Shown piece after piece: positions 40,838 through 46,295 of a DNA stretch of 64,000 nt. The stretch lies in NCBI GenBank assembly GCA_037917685.1, contig JAVCBU010000012.1, forward strand, positions 1 through 64,000. The letters run 5' to 3'. This DNA comes from Thermoproteota archaeon. Its GTDB lineage: Archaea > Korarchaeota > Korarchaeia > Korarchaeales > JAOZGB01. The notes below the pieces were generated by a model. The model saw nothing but the letters and a program-made list of their open reading frames with translations, made no database searches and was not told where the DNA came from. The position numbers were made by a program, and so were the translations under genes. Within the stretch, counting starts at the first letter, position 1. Each line of letters starts with the position of its first letter.

Positions 40838-41091
40838 TTGAGGTGTCTAGTTACTGGTGCCTCCGGATTCATCGGTGGTCATCTTGTGGAGAAGCTTGTC
40901 CGTGACGGACATGAGGTTAGAGCGCTGGTCAGACGGACTAGTAATGTTAGCCTGCTTAGAAATCTTGGTGTAGAACTTGTATACGGGGATATTACAGTCC
41001 CAGAAACATTAAGGCCTGTTGTTAAAGACGTAGATGTGGCATGGAGGACACAGTTAAATGGTATAGGGATAACGGGCTTCTGCAAGGGTGA
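40838..41091 (+). pseudogene. NAD-dependent epimerase/dehydratase with a large internal deletion
   Basis: N-terminal VTGASGFIGGHL...GDIT...VD is fused at ~41037, out of frame, to the family C-terminus GMEDTVKWYRDNGLL. Confidence 0.8.
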
Positions 41092-41097
41092 CGAGAA

Positions 41098-41508
41098 GTG
41101 AGGATTCTCATGTGGCACCTCACAAGTTTCAGGTTCAAACCTAAGAGTAAGGGGAGGACAAGTGTTCTGGGGGAGAAAAGGACTGTTGAAGCTGAGAACT
41201 GCCTTCTAGTCTTCTGCATGGTGGAGAAAAAGGACGCTGAGGGTATCTCAAGCGTTGTCGGAAAGGCTTGCAGGGATATAAGAGAGCAGATGTTAAGAAT
41301 AAAAGTGGATACTGTGGTGTTGCATTCGTTCGCCCACCTGTTCGGAGAACCAGCAAGCCCAGATGTAGCCCTGAAAATTTTAAAGCTGATGGAAGAGATA
41401 CTTCTGCAGGACGGTGTAAAAGTTTTGAAAACGCCTTTCGGATGGTTCGGTGAACTTGAGATTAAGGCTAAAGGTCACCCATTATCGAGAGTGGCGAGGA
41501 AATATTAG
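41098..41508 (+). CDS. Free-standing archaeal-type threonyl-tRNA synthetase editing domain
   Basis: MRIL..H, L.F..VE..D, V.LHSFAHL....A.P, PFGW...E....GHPLSR. Confidence 0.88.
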   Translation: MRILMWHLTSFRFKPKSKGRTSVLGEKRTVEAENCLLVFCMVEKKDAEGISSVVGKACRDIREQMLRIKVDTVVLHSFAHLFGEPASPDVALKILKLMEEILLQDGVKVLKTPFGWFGELEIKAKGHPLSRVARKY

Positions 41509-42707: not shown

Positions 42708-44294
42708 TTGTTTAGGGCTCCACGTGGTATGAGGGATATCGTAGGGGAGGAAATGGATTTTTGGTGTTGGGTTGAAGACACAGTGAGGTGTGTTTTTGAG
42801 AGTTTCGGATATAAGCGGGTTGAAACCCCGATATTTGAGCATTTTGACCTTTTCGCCCTTCGTTCGGGTGAGGAGATTAGAAATAGAATGTTTGTGTTTA
42901 GGATTGATGAGGGGGAGGTCGCCCTTAGACCTGAGATTACGGCGTCGATTGCAAGATTGGTCTCCTCAGGTCTTGAGGGTGCTCTACCCTATAGGCTCTA
43001 CTACATTGGAAGATGCTTCCGATATGAGGAGCCGCAGTCTGGAAGGTATAGAGAGTTCTGGCAGGCGGGTGTTGAGCTTGTGGGAAGCGGTAGACCGGAG
43101 GCTGATGCTGAACTATTAATTCTTGCCTACGAGGTTGCCGAGAACGTCGGGCTTCGAGACTTCAACCTTAAGATTGGCGATATGAGCATTATCAGGGGGT
43201 TACTGGAGGACTTTAATGTGCCGACTGAGGTGCAAAATAGGATAATTACACCGTTGGATAAGCTTTCAAGTAGTACTGACAGGCTTAGGGCGTTTCTCAC
43301 AAAGGTTAGGAGAGAGGGAAAGCTTGACAGCTTGGAGGTTAAAGAGCTTGCTAGGATAGCTGATAGCCTCAGAATGTGGAGGATTAAAGAGGCTGAGAAG
43401 ATTTCAGCCGGGTTATCGAAGATTCCACGTGAGCACTGGGAATTCGTAGAGGAGGATCCAAGAATATATCTTCTTGAGGAGTTAAATAGCCAAGGAAAAA
43501 CCAGGGAGCTCGCGAACTTTATAGCTGATACTATTGAAGGGCTTAGGAAGGCTTTAATGTTGGAATGGGCATATAACGGGGTTGATACTGTTAGTGGAAA
43601 ATACTTTCTGGATCCAAAGGCCTCAAGCATGTTGTTCGACCTGATAGGGATTTCGGGTGCTCCTTCGAAATGTATCTCCAAGGTCGACGCATTGGTAAAG
43701 GATCTGAAGAGGGCAGCAGACTCTGTAGAGAGATTCGAAACGATTATAGAGCTTGTAGAAGAGGCCGAATTAAGGTTTACTGTTGACTTTGGCCTTGCTA
43801 GGGGCTTGGAGTACTATACTGGAATGGTTTTTGAAATCGACTATCCCGGGCTTGGAGCTGAAAAGCAGATCTGCGGTGGAGGCAGGTATGACCAGTTAAT
43901 ACAAGAGTTTGGAGGACGTCCTACCCCAGCTCTAGGATTTGGTTATGGCTTGGACAGGCTCGTGCTTGCAGCCATGGACTCCAATTTAAAACCAGCGGTT
44001 CCAAGTAAAAGGCTTTTCCTAGTCCCTATAAGTCCAGACGTGGCTGGATATGCTCTAAAGGTCGCTAGGATGCTACATCACGTAGTAAATCTAACATTTG
44101 ATCTCAAGATTAGAGGTGTCAGAGAGGGATTATCCTATGCTTCAAAGAAGGGTTACAGGTACGCAGCTATCATTGGCAGGTCTGAAAAGGAATACGGAAA
44201 AGTTACTATCAAGGATCTTCAGAGTGGTATGCAGGAAACTATACCACTTGACGGAGTCATAGACTACTTGGTGTCAAAAGATGAGGAGAATTAA
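42708..44294 (+). CDS. hisS: Histidyl-tRNA synthetase with an enlarged insertion domain
   Basis: PRG.RD, LRPE.T, FRYE.PQ.GRYREF.Q..VE, RGLEYYTG..FE, GGGRYD, GFGYGLDRL and a C-terminal anticodon-binding domain; 528 aa. Confidence 0.9.
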   Translation: MFRAPRGMRDIVGEEMDFWCWVEDTVRCVFESFGYKRVETPIFEHFDLFALRSGEEIRNRMFVFRIDEGEVALRPEITASIARLVSSGLEGALPYRLYYIGRCFRYEEPQSGRYREFWQAGVELVGSGRPEADAELLILAYEVAENVGLRDFNLKIGDMSIIRGLLEDFNVPTEVQNRIITPLDKLSSSTDRLRAFLTKVRREGKLDSLEVKELARIADSLRMWRIKEAEKISAGLSKIPREHWEFVEEDPRIYLLEELNSQGKTRELANFIADTIEGLRKALMLEWAYNGVDTVSGKYFLDPKASSMLFDLIGISGAPSKCISKVDALVKDLKRAADSVERFETIIELVEEAELRFTVDFGLARGLEYYTGMVFEIDYPGLGAEKQICGGGRYDQLIQEFGGRPTPALGFGYGLDRLVLAAMDSNLKPAVPSKRLFLVPISPDVAGYALKVARMLHHVVNLTFDLKIRGVREGLSYASKKGYRYAAIIGRSEKEYGKVTIKDLQSGMQETIPLDGVIDYLVSKDEEN

Positions 44295-45510
44295 CATCTG
44301 CACAGTTGGGTGCAGAGGAACTGGAAAGTCAACCCTTACAGGCAGGCTACTTTTAAGGCTAGGTAGGTTTTCACCAGATGATGTAAATAGATGCATAAGA
44401 ATCGCACAAAAGATAGGTAAAGCAGGCTCGGAATATGCATTTCTAGTGGACAGGCTTCTTGAAGAGAGAATAAAGGGAAGAAGCCTAAAGAGTCATATGG
44501 TTAAAGCCGCTGCCGATGGCAACATACTTAGAATCATAGATACACCAGGCTATCCCCATAATATCGGTGAAACTGTTTTAGCACTTAACATATCGGAGGC
44601 CGTCCTCATCCTTACAAGCTATAAAGAAATCGTGGAGAAAAGCCTCACTCTCAAAGACCTCCTTAGAACCGTATTCATATTCGGTCCTAGGAGAATAATA
44701 CCTGTTATAAATCTTAAAGAGGATATAAATGGAGAAAGATTTATAGAGGCATCCGAAGAGTTTAGAAAGATATTGTTGGATGAGAAACTTCTGAATAGAG
44801 TTGTTTGCGACCCGATTCCCATATCAGCCTATGAAGGCTTAAACCTGTGGAACAAAAATTTGGAATGGTATAAGGGTAACCCTCTACTTGATGTAATCCT
44901 TGATCTCAGAGTATACCCTCTACTTAAGGAACCTGCTAGAGCAATAGTTTACAATGTTACAGGTGAGGCCGGAATACCTCTTGTTCACATGCTTAGAGGA
45001 TCGATTAAGGTGGGGGAAAGAGTCCTCCTCTCCCCAGCATCGATAATAGGGAGGGTAGTGGAAGCTGAATCATGGGGGGAGAGGATTAACACGGTATCTT
45101 GGGGGATGGATGCTGGTTTAAGGCTGGAAGGGATAGCGAGGTACCATATTAAAAGAGGGAACCTCATATCGAAGCTTGAAGGAGCCCCCACGGTTTCAAA
45201 CAAGTTCGAAGCATACATCCACTTGTACCACGGGAAATTAAAACCTGGCATGACATTTGCAGCCCAGATGACATACGAGACAGCTCAGTTTAGAGTACTT
45301 GAAGTTCATAATAGATCTCCCCGGGAAGGCGCCACTACTGAAAGTTTAGAGGGGGAGGCGGCAAGCGTCATAGTTGAAGCTGATAGGGACGTAGCATTTG
45401 ACCCTGTCGGTTACGGGCTGAGGACATGCCGGTTCATGCTTAGAGGAGGCATCCCCGGGCGTCGGGGAAGCTGGGTAATAGGATATGGAGATTTTATAGG
45501 TGGTATATGA
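44281..45510 (+). CDS. Divergent EF-1alpha/EF-Tu paralog (three-domain translational GTPase-like protein)
   Basis: G1 GCRGTGKSTL.GRLL, YAFLVDRL.EER..G, IIDTPG, ISAYEG.N; domain II G.IKVG..V...P...IKRG; domain III PTV...F.A...RF.LR. Confidence 0.8.
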   Translation: MRRINICTVGCRGTGKSTLTGRLLLRLGRFSPDDVNRCIRIAQKIGKAGSEYAFLVDRLLEERIKGRSLKSHMVKAAADGNILRIIDTPGYPHNIGETVLALNISEAVLILTSYKEIVEKSLTLKDLLRTVFIFGPRRIIPVINLKEDINGERFIEASEEFRKILLDEKLLNRVVCDPIPISAYEGLNLWNKNLEWYKGNPLLDVILDLRVYPLLKEPARAIVYNVTGEAGIPLVHMLRGSIKVGERVLLSPASIIGRVVEAESWGERINTVSWGMDAGLRLEGIARYHIKRGNLISKLEGAPTVSNKFEAYIHLYHGKLKPGMTFAAQMTYETAQFRVLEVHNRSPREGATTESLEGEAASVIVEADRDVAFDPVGYGLRTCRFMLRGGIPGRRGSWVIGYGDFIGGI

Positions 45511-46295
45511 TGATTAGGGAGCTTTTTAAATGTGACAAGCCCCTCATTGGGGTAGTTCATCTCGAGCCACTCCCAGGCGCCCCTCTTCACAAGCTTAAGA
45601 TGGACGAAATAATAGAGACAGCGCTAGACGATGCCAAGGCATTGTGTAATGGAGGAGTAGATGGAATAATAATAGAGAACTATGGAGATGCGCCCTACTA
45701 TCCGAGGAGGGTTCCCCCGTTTACGGTAGCAGCTATGGCTATTATAGTGAGGCACGTTGTTAAGGCTGTAGATATACCTGTGGGGGTTAACGTCTTGAGA
45801 AACGATTGGAGGTCATCACTATCTATAGCCCATGTGACAGAAGCGTCGTTCATAAGAGTGAATATTCTCTCTGGAAGTTATATTACTGACCAGGGATACA
45901 TTGAAGGCGAAGCACACCTGCTACAGAGGTTAAAAAGGTATCTTAATAGTAGGGTGAAGGTGTTTGCAGACATCGATGTTAAACATGCCGGGAGGATAGT
46001 TCAAAGGCCGTTAGAGGATGAAGCGAGGGATCTATCCGAGAGGTCTCTCGCCGATGCAATAATAGTTACTGGTGAAGCGACCGGCAAGCCTCCACGGATT
46101 GAAAAGGTGAAGATTGTAAAGGAGGCTGTGGGAGACAAGCCTGTGATTGTTGGCAGCGGGTTGACTCCTGAAAATATAGCCTCGTATCTTCGAATATGCG
46201 ATGGCTTTATAGTGGGAACCTATTTCAAGAGAGGACGAAGAGTAAACATAGAGAAGGTTAAAGCACTAGTCTCTATGGTCAAGCAAAGCTCATAG
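45507..46295 (+). CDS. BtpA/SgcQ family TIM-barrel protein
   Basis: IGVVHL.PLPG.P, IENYGD.PY, GVNVLRND, ADI.VKH, TG..TG, GSG....N, IVGT.FK. Confidence 0.93.
   Translation: MMIRELFKCDKPLIGVVHLEPLPGAPLHKLKMDEIIETALDDAKALCNGGVDGIIIENYGDAPYYPRRVPPFTVAAMAIIVRHVVKAVDIPVGVNVLRNDWRSSLSIAHVTEASFIRVNILSGSYITDQGYIEGEAHLLQRLKRYLNSRVKVFADIDVKHAGRIVQRPLEDEARDLSERSLADAIIVTGEATGKPPRIEKVKIVKEAVGDKPVIVGSGLTPENIASYLRICDGFIVGTYFKRGRRVNIEKVKALVSMVKQSS

Follow-up and report, generated by a model that had tools for sequence, protein, structure and literature searches.

A rare EF1A-derived protein family linked to histidyl-tRNA synthetase in a few uncultivated archaea

Within the window, the whole 64,000-nucleotide stretch of archaeal DNA that was analysed, a gene for an EF1A-like protein follows a long-form histidyl-tRNA synthetase (HisRS) gene, with a 14-nt overlap between the HisRS stop and the start of the downstream frame (Table 1). 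The long HisRS was the only HisRS found in the window's genome (G000). The downstream gene, here named HEL (HisRS-linked EF1A-like), begins with ATG and has no internal stop codons. The only annotation found for it was "hypothetical protein" and no description of HEL was found in print.

Table 1. Coordinates of genes, motifs and predicted contact regions at the HisRS-HEL locus of the window
Feature	Position	Strand	Basis or remark
Long-form histidyl-tRNA synthetase, 528 aa	42708..44294	+	TIGR00442 357.5 bits (cut-off 286.75)
Extra HisRS insertion (about residues 164-313), all-helical	43197..43646	+	PDB matches, HEL-less relatives, AF2
HisRS insertion helices, residues 215-255, predicted docking platform for HEL	43350..43472	+	Interface list of the complex model
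HEL gene, 409 aa, three EF-Tu-type domains	44281..45510	+	ORF, Pfam/NCBIfam, AF2, Foldseek
G1/P-loop GCRGTGKST (residues 10-18)	44308..44334	+	GxxxxGK[ST] frame retained, His-Val-Asp-His of GHVDHGKST gone; alignments
Switch I ERIKGRSL (residues 62-69), Thr to Ser; canonical ERERGLTI	44464..44487	+	Alignment; residues 58-64 in predicted HisRS interface
G3 DTPGY (residues 87-91), canonical DAPGH	44539..44553	+	DxPG retained, catalytic His to Tyr
Degenerate G4 NLKE (residues 144-147) replacing NKMD	44710..44721	+	Alignment
Domain II AESWG (residues 262-266; ESWG = 263-266) replacing IEMHH/EMHH, HEL family signature	45067..45078	+	Alignment
Domain II HEL motif GIARYHIKRG (residues 284-293)	45130..45159	+	Residues 284 and 286-288 in predicted HisRS interface
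Domain III insert GGIPGRRG (residues 389-396)	45445..45468	+	Common to 'ARY' subgroup of HEL; missing in aEF1A and CysN
BtpA/SgcQ-family gene, 4-nt overlap with HEL stop	45507..46295	+	ORF, Pfam/NCBIfam; window-specific neighbour, not conserved at other HEL loci

The reading of this frame as an intact EF-1alpha paralog of 409 aa, made in a preliminary description of the locus, was borne out by the uninterrupted ORF, the Pfam and NCBIfam matches and an aEF1A-like structural model. Pfam GTP_EFTU was matched at 58.1 bits (cut-off 26.5) and the NCBIfam EF-1alpha families at 130.5 bits for PRK12317 (cut-off 502) and 126.8 bits for TIGR00483 (cut-off 540.1). The AlphaFold2 (AF2) model was confident (pLDDT 87.5, pTM 0.88) and was matched by Foldseek to the GTP-form aEF1A structures 3vmf_A and 3wxm with a TM of 0.88-0.89. 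Domains II and III were fully kept and modelled with high confidence, and the protein ended with domain III, without a SelB-type C-terminal extension.

Alignment with the genome's own aEF1A and CysN contained all of the motif changes listed in the preliminary description (G1, switch I, G3, G4 and EMHH to ESWG). Taking GHVDHGKS, the His of DxPGH and NKxD to be GTPase-centre residues with the roles assigned by EF-Tu biochemistry, this alignment supports the earlier proposal that residues for ribosome-triggered GTP hydrolysis and guanine recognition have been replaced. The substitutions were also conserved in homologs, with GCRGTGKST, GRSL, DTPGY and ESWG kept in P0002 (83% identical) and P0003 (82%), while the last G4 position was variable in close relatives (NLKE, NLKG, and NLKK in P0029). 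The term pseudo-GTPase, as proposed earlier, would fit in part: the residues of hydrolysis and base specificity are lost, but the phosphate-binding residues are kept and triphosphate binding is probably retained. The regions corresponding to PIQDVY, EMHH and GDNIG, the aminoacyl/A76 pocket motifs of domain II in canonical aEF1A, read RAIVYNV with a 3-residue deletion, ESWG and GMDAG in the window protein.

The best non-self matches of the window protein were EF-1alpha-like proteins that scored 260-394 bits, below the cut-off of 502. Derived traits common to these proteins and the window HEL were the 3-residue domain II deletion, E-x-W in place of EMHH, the motif G[IV][AG]R[YQ]xxK[KRP]G and, to some extent, the domain III insert. 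The window protein has all the domain II signatures, namely the deletion (after the RxP strand), AESWG and GIARYHIKRG, and departs from the other members in having RAIVYN versus RLPxxR. No other member of this rare EF1A-derived family is as diverged. A HEL profile built from 20 family members, with the query clade left out, scored it at 227 bits, versus 154 bits for the aEF1A profile and 150 bits for the CysN profile, a lead of 77 bits over CysN. In the best tree the 23 rows of the HEL alignment formed one clade (SH-aLRT 99) nested inside the aEF1A radiation, with CysN separate (96). The query clade was on a very long stem of 2.72 changes per column, and its grouping with CysN was not rejected by the AU test (p-AU 0.28, delta lnL 8.7).

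HEL is a family in which motifs of the GTPase centre have been lost in several lineages. All 23 aligned sequences were full-length and uninterrupted, G10, G15, K16, P89 and G90 were invariant in 23/23 rows, and D87 (in 21 or more rows) and S17 were kept in at least 90% of rows. The catalytic His was present only in L076/P0033 and P0034, basal members that keep every GTPase motif, and was elsewhere M, I, L, V, D, S, A or Y, and NKxD was lost in at least three HEL lineages. No HEL member kept the canonical residues of the aminoacyl pocket (QD in PIQDVY, HH in EMHH and N in GDNIG). The family is under purifying selection, with dN/dS of 0.14-0.21 in five close HEL pairs from outside the query clade, some of them including members without NKxD, and of 0.11-0.12 for HisRS in the two of those pairs with both HisRS genes available. 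Within the query clade, the window HEL motifs were conserved versus its relatives essentially without indels, and identities of 82-83% for HEL and 87-91% for HisRS gave a ratio resembling that of the measured pairs. Since members without the catalytic His or NKxD are still under purifying selection, the conserved function of HEL cannot hinge on GTP hydrolysis or guanine recognition. HEL centres run from fully intact to without His, Asp and NKxD, all under purifying selection, and offer a natural series for pseudo-GTPase evolution.

HEL is linked to HisRS and co-occurs with an insertion in that enzyme. At 16 of 17 loci, comprising 9 genome loci (9/9 linked), 7 metagenome loci (6/7) and the window, HEL was immediately downstream of a long HisRS on the same strand, L078 being the sole locus without HisRS upstream. 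The overlap between HisRS stop and HEL start was mostly 1-4 nt across loci, HisRS was the only neighbour conserved, and the linkage spanned at least two classes or phyla. Within the window's phylum, HEL was found in 3 of 43 genomes and the HisRS insertion in the same 3, and HisRS residues 233-302 were covered by none of the matches among 37 other, HEL-less genomes of the phylum with a HisRS match. A second class had HEL in 7 of 301 genomes, and the insertion was found in exactly these 7, on the contigs that carry HEL, and no genome among those searched had HEL only or the insertion only; these counts overstate independence because few independent lineages are included and because the HisRS tree suggests that the HisRS-HEL pair moves as a cassette. 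Canonical aEF1A was retained in every HEL genome examined (G000, G038, G039 and G043-G047), and HEL is an addition to aEF1A, not a replacement.

The extra helical insertion of HEL-associated HisRS is about 110-150 residues long. PDB sequence matches to the long HisRS covered residues 5-163 and 314-524 only, the insertion being missing from solved HisRS structures, and AF2 placed helices at residues 173-352 with pLDDT of about 90-97 while folding the stretches 41-76 and 105-115 with low confidence. Three runs of a complex model of HEL with HisRS, which places HEL on the insertion, gave ipSAE values of 0.67, 0.70 and 0.69 (median 0.69), while the highest value among 3 controls was 0.01. Among solved complexes 58 of 80 attained the mark reached by HEL with HisRS, and among mismatched pairs 2 of 110 did, which is a rough guide since self-built alignments were used here; those alignments were shallow, at 14 and 23 rows. 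The three runs shared at least 97% of contacts, with a partner pLDDT of 86. The predicted interface joined HisRS residues 215-255 (in the insertion), 58-63 and 106 with HEL residues 30-45, 58-64, 231 and 284-288, the HisRS core segments (58-63 and 106) falling in the low-confidence stretches of the monomer model. It was not significantly more conserved than background, the HisRS insertion being matched by 6432 of 10000 random sets and HEL by 700 of 10000. We know of no solved HisRS:EF1A complex, so it seems unlikely that the model reproduces a memorised structure, and on its basis HEL and HisRS are predicted to bind physically.

The preliminary description had envisaged binding of an aminoacylated RNA end or of an aRF1/aPelota-like partner. 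Nothing in the analysis points to the latter, and gene order, co-occurrence and the complex model indicate HisRS instead. The former would need a remodelled pocket, because the canonical aminoacyl-pocket residues are nowhere kept in the HEL family.

Canonical aEF1A has the same three-domain fold as HEL and is its closest NCBIfam sequence family (TIGR00483/PRK12317), with HEL still carrying the P-loop, switch-I Thr/Ser and DxPG. However, the window protein is 27% identical to the genome's own aEF1A (BLASTP 97 bits over 372 residues), is without the catalytic His, P-loop Asp and NKxD, and has a remodelled domain II pocket with the 3-residue deletion. Its gene is also with HisRS, whereas the canonical aEF1A is on another contig. 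The window protein was rejected as a canonical aEF1A, with scores far below the NCBIfam cut-offs and a GTPase centre that is not intact, while the genome's true aEF1A scored 653 bits. CysN, the second-best NCBIfam family, is likewise an EF1A-derived G protein that is off the ribosome and partners an adenylate-forming enzyme. The window protein scored below the CysN threshold, with 78.3 bits to TIGR02034 versus a cut-off of 336.1, and its neighbours are HisRS and BtpA, with no CysD. The earlier remark that no cysD is adjacent was correct, and the genome's CysN is canonical (GHVDHGKST/DAPGH/NKMD) and located on contig C18 beside a PAPS_reduct-domain (CysD-type) gene. CysN is reported to hydrolyse GTP (PMC4342817), whereas HEL is without the catalytic residues. 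Assignments to SelB/aSelBL (selB TIGR00475 28.4 bits versus a cut-off of 242.25, no C-terminal extension) and to a GTPBP1-like protein or aGTPBP (BLASTP 30 bits over 86 residues to the genome's 550-aa GTPBP-like protein, no N-terminal extension) were also rejected. The preliminary description had considered CysN unlikely, and profile, alignment and BLASTP comparisons kept the window HEL distinct from the genome's CysN, aEF1A and GTPBP-like protein.

Other archaeal systems offer analogies of function. The methanogen protein aSelBL (MM1309), an archaeal EF-Tu-superfamily paralog, is described in its abstract as binding Cys-tRNACys, protecting the ester bond and staying closed whatever the nucleotide, and was proposed to be a 'guardian' and not a classical factor (PMC4329189); it is the closest functional analogy for a putative holder of His-tRNAHis. 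It belongs to another branch (SelB/aIF2gamma-like) and still binds GTP tightly, and neither a synthetase linkage nor an insertion is mentioned in that abstract (PMC4329189). In Methanothermobacter thermautotrophicus, an archaeal EF-1alpha:LeuRS (multi-synthetase) complex is reported to have an aminoacylation kcat raised about 8-fold, and hand-over of aa-tRNA was proposed (PMC2094089). By analogy, the same working principle, a synthetase bound by an EF-1alpha-type protein, is proposed for HEL. LeuRS is bound there by ordinary, active aEF1A in an association that gene order does not encode, whereas HEL is a dedicated, apparently hydrolysis-dead paralog in the HisRS operon and is matched by a HisRS-specific insertion. 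A 2015 census of trGTPase subfamilies is reported to include aEF1A, aGTPBP, aIF2g, aSelB, aSelBL and CysN, with no synthetase-linked member among those named (PMC4342817), and HEL would be a new subfamily if the HisRS-locked, hydrolysis-dead reading is true.

On balance, HEL is probably a hydrolysis-dead, EF1A-derived accessory subunit of HisRS, likely to act on tRNAHis or His-tRNAHis at the synthetase. The two genes would be co-transcribed and translationally coupled, and HEL would work with HisRS and not with the ribosome. Docking would occur through the HEL switch-I helices (residues 30-45 and 58-64) and the HEL-specific domain II loop GIARY (284-288), which would contact the insertion (residues about 215-255) carried only by HEL-associated HisRS and would extend toward the HisRS catalytic core. 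An NTP is probably still held by HEL as a structural ligand because its G domain retains the regions that bind phosphate and Mg, and a ribosome-activated GTPase cycle would be impossible because HEL lacks the catalytic His and P-loop Asp and, in the query clade, NKxD as well. Placed beside the acceptor-end entrance of HisRS, HEL would most likely aid the binding of tRNAHis, or take over or protect His-tRNAHis. Because the HEL family does not conserve the aminoacyl-pocket residues of EF-Tu/EF1A, contact with the 3' end of His-tRNA is speculative, and domain II may serve simply for contact between proteins.

In HEL the transient aaRS:EF-1alpha complexes would thus have a permanent and dedicated counterpart, a natural and stable form of the 'channeling' associations whose physiological role is still debated. 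The HEL-HisRS pair suggests that, in a few uncultivated archaea, a tRNA-charging enzyme has a helper subunit not described before. Re-use of the core translation machinery is illustrated by paralogs of translational GTPases that left the ribosome, such as CysN, eRF3/Hbs1 and SelB-like proteins. A bolder version of the accessory-subunit reading is put forward tentatively, and we hold it to be possible but not probable: the housekeeping HisRS would be an obligate hetero-oligomer with HEL, in which HEL, locked closed and NTP-bound on the purpose-built insertion, grips tRNAHis by its acceptor arm and is handed His-tRNAHis directly from the active site, and the cassette would have crossed archaeal phyla and replaced the resident HisRS. 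If true, HisRS of these archaea would be the first aaRS to have its own dedicated subunit for tRNA handling, EF-derived and encoded in the genome, and a guarded pool of His-tRNAHis could be passed later to aEF1A or used outside translation.

A different role at the synthetase, which we regard as unlikely, is that of a nucleotide-dependent regulatory or energy-coupling subunit comparable to CysN beside CysD: HEL would sense or bind GTP or ATP and control histidine activation or the turnover of HisRS allosterically, without any contact with tRNA. This would agree equally well with the linkage of the genes, the co-occurrence data and the complex model, and switch I is in the predicted interface, as expected for binding that depends on nucleotide state. 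The phosphate-binding residues are (nearly) invariant across HEL, the canonical aminoacyl pocket is not conserved, the basal L076/P0033 and P0034 have all GTPase motifs, and CysN is a reported precedent for an EF1A derivative driving an adenylate-forming partner (PMC4342817). However, most HEL proteins are without the catalytic His and several without NKxD, under purifying selection nonetheless, and HEL retains the whole of domains II and III, which make up the tRNA-binding body in EF1A.

It is quite improbable that HEL acts as a free elongation factor specialised in taking His-tRNAHis to the ribosome in a SelB-like manner and is merely co-expressed with HisRS. The complete three-domain EF1A fold, modelled in a closed, GTP-like form, and the operon with HisRS would be consistent with such a factor, and dedicated elongation factors are reported for Sec-tRNA (PMC3037878). 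Yet canonical aEF1A is retained in every HEL genome examined, and the exact co-occurrence with the HisRS insertion would be left unexplained. In the window protein the catalytic His, which most HEL have lost, is Tyr, and the P-loop Asp and NKxD are gone; without those residues ribosome-activated hydrolysis and release would fail under the established EF-Tu mechanism. To our knowledge, the general factor serves tRNAHis in all studied organisms.

A decaying, functionless duplicate or a diverged CysN/aEF1A relic located beside HisRS by chance is scarcely credible, since the extremely long stem (2.72), the degenerate GTPase motifs, the CysN affinity left standing by the AU test and the sole annotation as a hypothetical protein are set against 23/23 full-length and uninterrupted sequences with dN/dS of 0.14-0.21, HEL motifs conserved between query and relatives with essentially no indels, a linkage that has been conserved in at least two classes or phyla, a preference of 74 bits for the HEL profile and a CysN-CysD pair that sits elsewhere in the same genome.

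Other genes were also observed beside the HisRS-HEL pair. An aromatic-amino-acid-lyase gene (PF00221), from a family that includes histidine ammonia-lyase as one member, was adjacent in 6 loci and may represent a link to histidine. Thg1, the tRNAHis guanylyltransferase, adjoined the pair in 4 loci.

The gene for the HisRS-linked EF1A-like protein (HEL, a family name coined here) was found intact, as the preliminary description had stated, and all of the substitutions listed there were present in an alignment of the query with the canonical aEF1A and CysN of the same genome (alignment A1). These were GCRGTGKST in place of GHVDHGKST, ERIKGRSL in place of ERERGLTI, DTPGY in place of DAPGH, NLKE in place of NKMD and ESWG in place of EMHH. 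The Pfam EF-Tu GTP-binding domain was matched with 58.1 bits and domain 2 below threshold, while EF-1alpha was the top-ranked NCBIfam family (130.5 and 126.8 bits against cut-offs of 502 and 540.1) and CysN the second (78.3 bits against 336.1). The AlphaFold2 model was confident (pLDDT 87.5, pTM 0.88), and its best structural matches were GTP-form aEF1A structures at TM 0.88-0.89, with GDP forms at about 0.46. In the ESM Atlas the matches were generic clusters only, of EF-1alpha, GTP-binding and sulfate adenylyltransferase type.

Coordinates of the HEL gene, its neighbors and other features discussed in the text
Feature	Location	Strand	Description
Epimerase/NmrA-type fragment	window 40838-41101	+	87 aa, N-terminal piece of NAD-dependent epimerase/NmrA-type protein, premature end
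ThrRS editing-domain ORF	window 41098-41508	+	136 aa, Pfam tRNA-Thr_ED, 131 bits
Long HisRS	window 42708-44294	+	528 aa; TIGR00442 357.5 bits, cut-off 286.75; sole HisRS in the genome
HEL query ORF	window 44281-45510	+	ATG start, 409 aa, uninterrupted
BtpA/SgcQ-family gene	window 45507-46295	+	4-nt overlap with the HEL stop; Pfam BtpA, 304 bits
Candidate tRNA	G000:C6:1577-1661	-	Rfam tRNA match, 14.6 bits
Thg1	G000:C1:377667-378026		tRNAHis guanylyltransferase
L077	4338-5741		aEF1A-like paralog from metagenome, outside HEL

The assembly carrying the window (G000; 1.81 Mb, 22 contigs, 95% complete) encodes a canonical aEF1A on contig C6 (653 bits), a canonical CysN on contig C18 adjoining a PAPS_reduct-domain (CysD-type) gene, a 550-aa GTPBP-like protein, aIF2-gamma, aEF2 and aIF5B. 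Since aEF1A, CysN and the GTPBP-like protein are already accounted for, the query is an extra paralog. Its identity to the aEF1A of the genome was 27% over 372 residues (97 bits), and the GTPBP-like protein was matched only over 86 residues (30 bits). By its scores the query falls outside aEF1A, CysN, SelB/aSelBL and the GTPBP-like proteins, with its tree position relative to CysN less clear-cut (see below). The earlier statement that no cysD is adjacent is correct; the CysN and CysD-type gene of the genome lie on contig C18.

Close relatives of the query among 5.8 billion proteins were only P0002 (83% identity), P0003 (82%) and members of the P0002 cluster, all of which retained the substitutions, with E, G or K as the last G4 residue. 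When 1.84 billion representatives were searched exhaustively with HMMER, one close cluster (P0002, 773 bits) was likewise returned before scores fell to 135 bits at 31% identity. The next matches (P0031, P0032, P0033, P0034, P0036 and P0042) were sub-threshold EF-1alpha-like proteins of 260-394 bits. No relative was found by a genome-contig scan with the single query protein as probe, and family probes later gave loci: nine in the genome collection (seven in Bathyarchaeia MAGs, two in 'Thermoproteota archaeon' MAGs) and eight in metagenomes, where the second subgroup was used as probe, or seven after exclusion of L077. Family members are named 'hypothetical protein' in the databases.

Several derived traits without counterpart in aEF1A or CysN define the family. 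The first strand-loop of domain II is shorter by 3 residues, reading RLPxxR[HYT][FY] where aEF1A and CysN have RIPIQDVYTITG. Further traits are E-x-W-[GND] replacing EMHH, the motif G[IV][AG]R[YQ]xxK[KRP]G and, in one subgroup ('ARY'), the domain-III insert that the query also has. A profile of 20 family members, from which the query clade was excluded, matched the query with 227 bits compared to 154 for aEF1A and 150 for CysN. A maximum-likelihood tree of 48 rows (quick search) was built without the near-duplicates P0032 (of L071), P0033 (of L076) and P0133 (of L078); in it the 23 family rows formed one clade (SH-aLRT 99), nested among aEF1A sequences and separate from CysN (support 96). The stem of the query clade was very long at 2.72 changes per column, and a grouping of this clade with CysN was not rejected by the AU test (p-AU 0.28). 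The query is therefore assigned to the family mainly by indels and motifs, profile scores and gene context, with the tree carrying less weight.

Locus L077 was rejected as a family member as it has canonical GHVDHGKST, DAPGH and NKID motifs, no domain-II deletion and no HisRS neighbor, and clusters with P0046 outside the family. Further divergent aEF1A-like paralog clades outside HEL were observed in metagenomes and include L077, P0046, P0044, P0052, P0050 and P0054. L077 and P0046 are 467-470 aa with intact GTPase motifs, while P0044 and P0052 carry RMPILR and IEWQH and are sister to HEL in the tree.

The HEL start codon in the window lies 14 nt inside the 3' end of a gene for a long HisRS. 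All nine genome-collection loci had a long HisRS directly upstream on the same strand, with 43-47% identity to that of the window over approximately 520 residues (the L074 copy is cut at the contig end). The same arrangement was found at six of the seven metagenome loci (L083 is cut at the contig end), the exception being L078, where the gene upstream runs the other way and is not HisRS. Counting the window, HisRS was followed by HEL at 16 of 17 family loci. The stop and start codons mostly overlap by 1-4 nt, and HisRS was the sole neighbor conserved across loci, with flanking genes often on the opposite strand, so that the pair resembles a two-gene operon. For each sister genome the HisRS and HEL records share the same longest-contig value (85073 in one genome, 81648 in the other), which suggests linkage there too. 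In the window genome only, a BtpA/SgcQ-family gene appears to extend the pair to a three-gene unit; no BtpA homolog was found beside the pair in 17 other loci.

Genes with a histidine or tRNAHis theme adjoined the pair in part of the family. A PF00221 aromatic-amino-acid lyase (about 516-531 aa, 580 bits), from a family that includes histidine ammonia-lyase and here only putatively histidine-specific, was located beside HisRS-HEL in six loci (L067, L068, L070, L071, L072 and L075), and PF00221 had no match in the window genome. Four other loci (L079-L082) featured Thg1 and a class II aminoacyl-tRNA synthetase of D/K/N type; in the window genome Thg1 is distant from the pair. ARAGORN, with or without introns, identified no GUG anticodon in this genome, nor was one present among 37 Rfam tRNA matches, and a relaxed ARAGORN run gave thousands of false positives. 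Each of the other 19 amino acids had an ARAGORN call, although several on intron-containing genes look unreliable and that for tRNAPhe is especially doubtful. Many tRNA genes of the genome are 85-130 nt and thus contain introns. One weak Rfam match within a tRNA cluster on contig C6 includes a GUG-containing segment, acceptor pairing GCCGGGA/TCCCGGC and a C discriminator, with G-1 not encoded; in silico intron removal at this candidate gave ambiguous identities.

Solved HisRS structures (420-467 aa) aligned with the window enzyme only at residues 5-163 and 314-524. The roughly 110-150 additional residues were modelled as an all-helical extension of the insertion domain, with helices across residues 173-352 (pLDDT approximately 90-97). 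Within the phylum-level group of the window, the family profile detected HEL in 3 of 43 species genomes (G000, G038 and G039). HisRS was detected in 40 of the 43, the three without a match being 66-72% complete, and the insertion occurred in the same three genomes as HEL; the other 37 enzymes had no match over residues 233-302 and frames of 372-496 aa. In the class of the Bathyarchaeia loci HEL was present in 7 of 301 sampled genomes, and an insertion-only query matched these seven genomes, each on the contig that carries HEL, and nothing in the remaining 294. In a 31-genome subsample of this class, the four HEL genomes gave continuous long matches and 26 others gave split matches with frames of 405-493 aa. 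No genome searched had the insertion without HEL or HEL without the insertion, in what are few independent lineages.

A HisRS tree comparing the window enzyme, L058-L066 and L067-L104 was built after deletion of the insertion columns. The 14 long enzymes all grouped together, with support of 99 when one short Bathyarchaeia enzyme was included and 77 alone, and were far from seven short enzymes of the phylum to which the window belongs; the window enzyme was on a long branch (1.13). This grouping across classes makes it seem that the pair travels as a cassette, and the sequences suggest horizontal transfer with replacement of the resident HisRS.

HisRS and HEL were co-folded using their own alignments of 14 and 23 rows. 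The ipSAE values were 0.67, 0.70 and 0.69 (median 0.69) compared to 0.00, 0.00 and 0.01 for three controls; of 80 solved complexes 58 reach the mark for this score, as do 2 of 110 mismatched pairs, counts that are approximate here since custom alignments were used. The runs shared at least 97% of contacts, with a partner pLDDT of 86. The predicted HisRS side consists of residues 215-255, within the extra insertion, together with 58-63 and 106, next to motif 2 of the class II fold, although the core segments were poorly defined in the monomer model. On HEL, the switch-I helices (30-45 and 58-64), residue 231 and the GIARY motif (284-288) would be in contact. The features that co-occur in genomes are therefore those predicted to touch. 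To our knowledge no HisRS:EF1A complex has been solved, and prediction from a memorised structure thus seems unlikely. Conservation of interface positions was not significantly above background, while the hot-spot residues HisRS Y254 and HEL R63, G284 and R287 were conserved in at least 90% of rows. A direct complex through the insertion is probable.

P-loop residues G10, G15 and K16 and P89-G90 of DxPG were invariant in the 23 aligned HEL sequences, and S17 and D87 nearly so. The switch-I Thr was kept in nearly all members, with Ser in the query clade. The catalytic His was retained only in L076/P0033 and P0034, with M, I, L, V, D, S, A or Y in its place elsewhere, and most His-less members had also lost the P-loop Asp of GHVDHGKS. 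NKxD was intact in the Bathyarchaeia 'ARY' subgroup (SKMD in two genomes) and lost in the query clade (NLKE/G/K), L078/P0133 (NDVH), L081-L083 (SEGS, PEGN and FEGN) and P0149 (THRG). In EF-Tu, hydrolysis triggered by the ribosome requires the His and Asp, while the NKxD Asp confers guanine specificity. By these residue roles, HEL spans apparently competent GTPases to proteins that hold a triphosphate at most. The pseudo-GTPase idea of the preliminary description is supported for the query, which lacks all three features. The metagenome members L078-L080 and L081-L083 are only 334-370 aa long and have lost parts of the G domain around G4 and G5.

Purifying selection acts on all measured members. 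The dN/dS values of five close pairs were 0.149, 0.143, 0.145, 0.180 and 0.209, including the NKxD-less L081-L083, and those of HisRS were 0.108 and 0.122 in the two pairs with both HisRS genes; more diverged HEL pairs gave 0.23-0.29 with dS near saturation. Since shrunken members are at 0.14-0.18, the P-loop/switch region and domains II-III together appear to form the minimal functional core. As a proxy in the query clade, HEL identities of 83% and 82% compare to 91% and 87% for the partner HisRS, a ratio that resembles the measured pairs. A 151-nt fragment inside HEL from run X3 had eight differences at low depth and was too short for dN/dS. The HEL gene is almost certainly real, under selection and from a distinct family.

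HEL is best read as an accessory subunit of HisRS that works off the ribosome. A functional partnership of the two proteins is very likely: the genes resemble an operon and seem to be transferred together, HEL and the HisRS insertion co-occur without exception, both partners have evolved faster in the query lineage (branches of 1.13 for HisRS and 2.72 for HEL), and the complex model agrees. The His-tRNA lead of the preliminary description was apt, and HisRS is the partner indicated; its suggestion of an aRF1 or aPelota partner found no support in gene context or conservation. HEL retains the whole tRNA-binding body of EF1A, predicted near the acceptor-end entrance of HisRS, and may hold tRNAHis or receive and protect His-tRNAHis. 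The retained body, the predicted position and the histidine/tRNAHis theme of neighboring genes favor such a role, which we propose tentatively. Precedents pointing the same way are EF-1alpha:LeuRS for tRNA handling at a synthetase (PMC2094089) and MM1309, a Cys-tRNACys 'guardian', for tRNA protection (PMC4329189).

The main rival is a purely regulatory, nucleotide-dependent HisRS subunit. The canonical aminoacyl-pocket residues are not conserved in HEL, which would fit this role, and CysN, as described in the 2015 census, acts in this manner for CysD (PMC4342817); the tRNA-binding body and neighboring genes favor tRNA handling instead. A free His-specific elongation factor is unlikely as the catalytic residues are lost and every HEL genome examined has a canonical aEF1A. 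A decaying relic is contradicted by the purifying selection and conservation of HEL.

EF1A-derived paralogs re-used off the ribosome and associations between synthetases and elongation factors are known kinds. New in HEL is a dedicated paralog, dead in hydrolysis and committed to a single synthetase, with a co-occurring synthetase insertion. The relevant group in the 2015 translational GTPase census comprises aEF1A, aGTPBP, aIF2g, aSelB, aSelBL and CysN (PMC4342817), and its supplementary distribution tables could list such sequences; full-text literature searches returned no HisRS-linked EF1A paralog. In PMC11698992 the term 'EF1A-like' simply names a model mRNA and is no precedent for HEL.

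Elsewhere in the window, a free-standing ORF encodes the archaea-specific ThrRS editing domain alone. The epimerase/NmrA-type fragment directly 5' of it looks like a truncated gene remnant.
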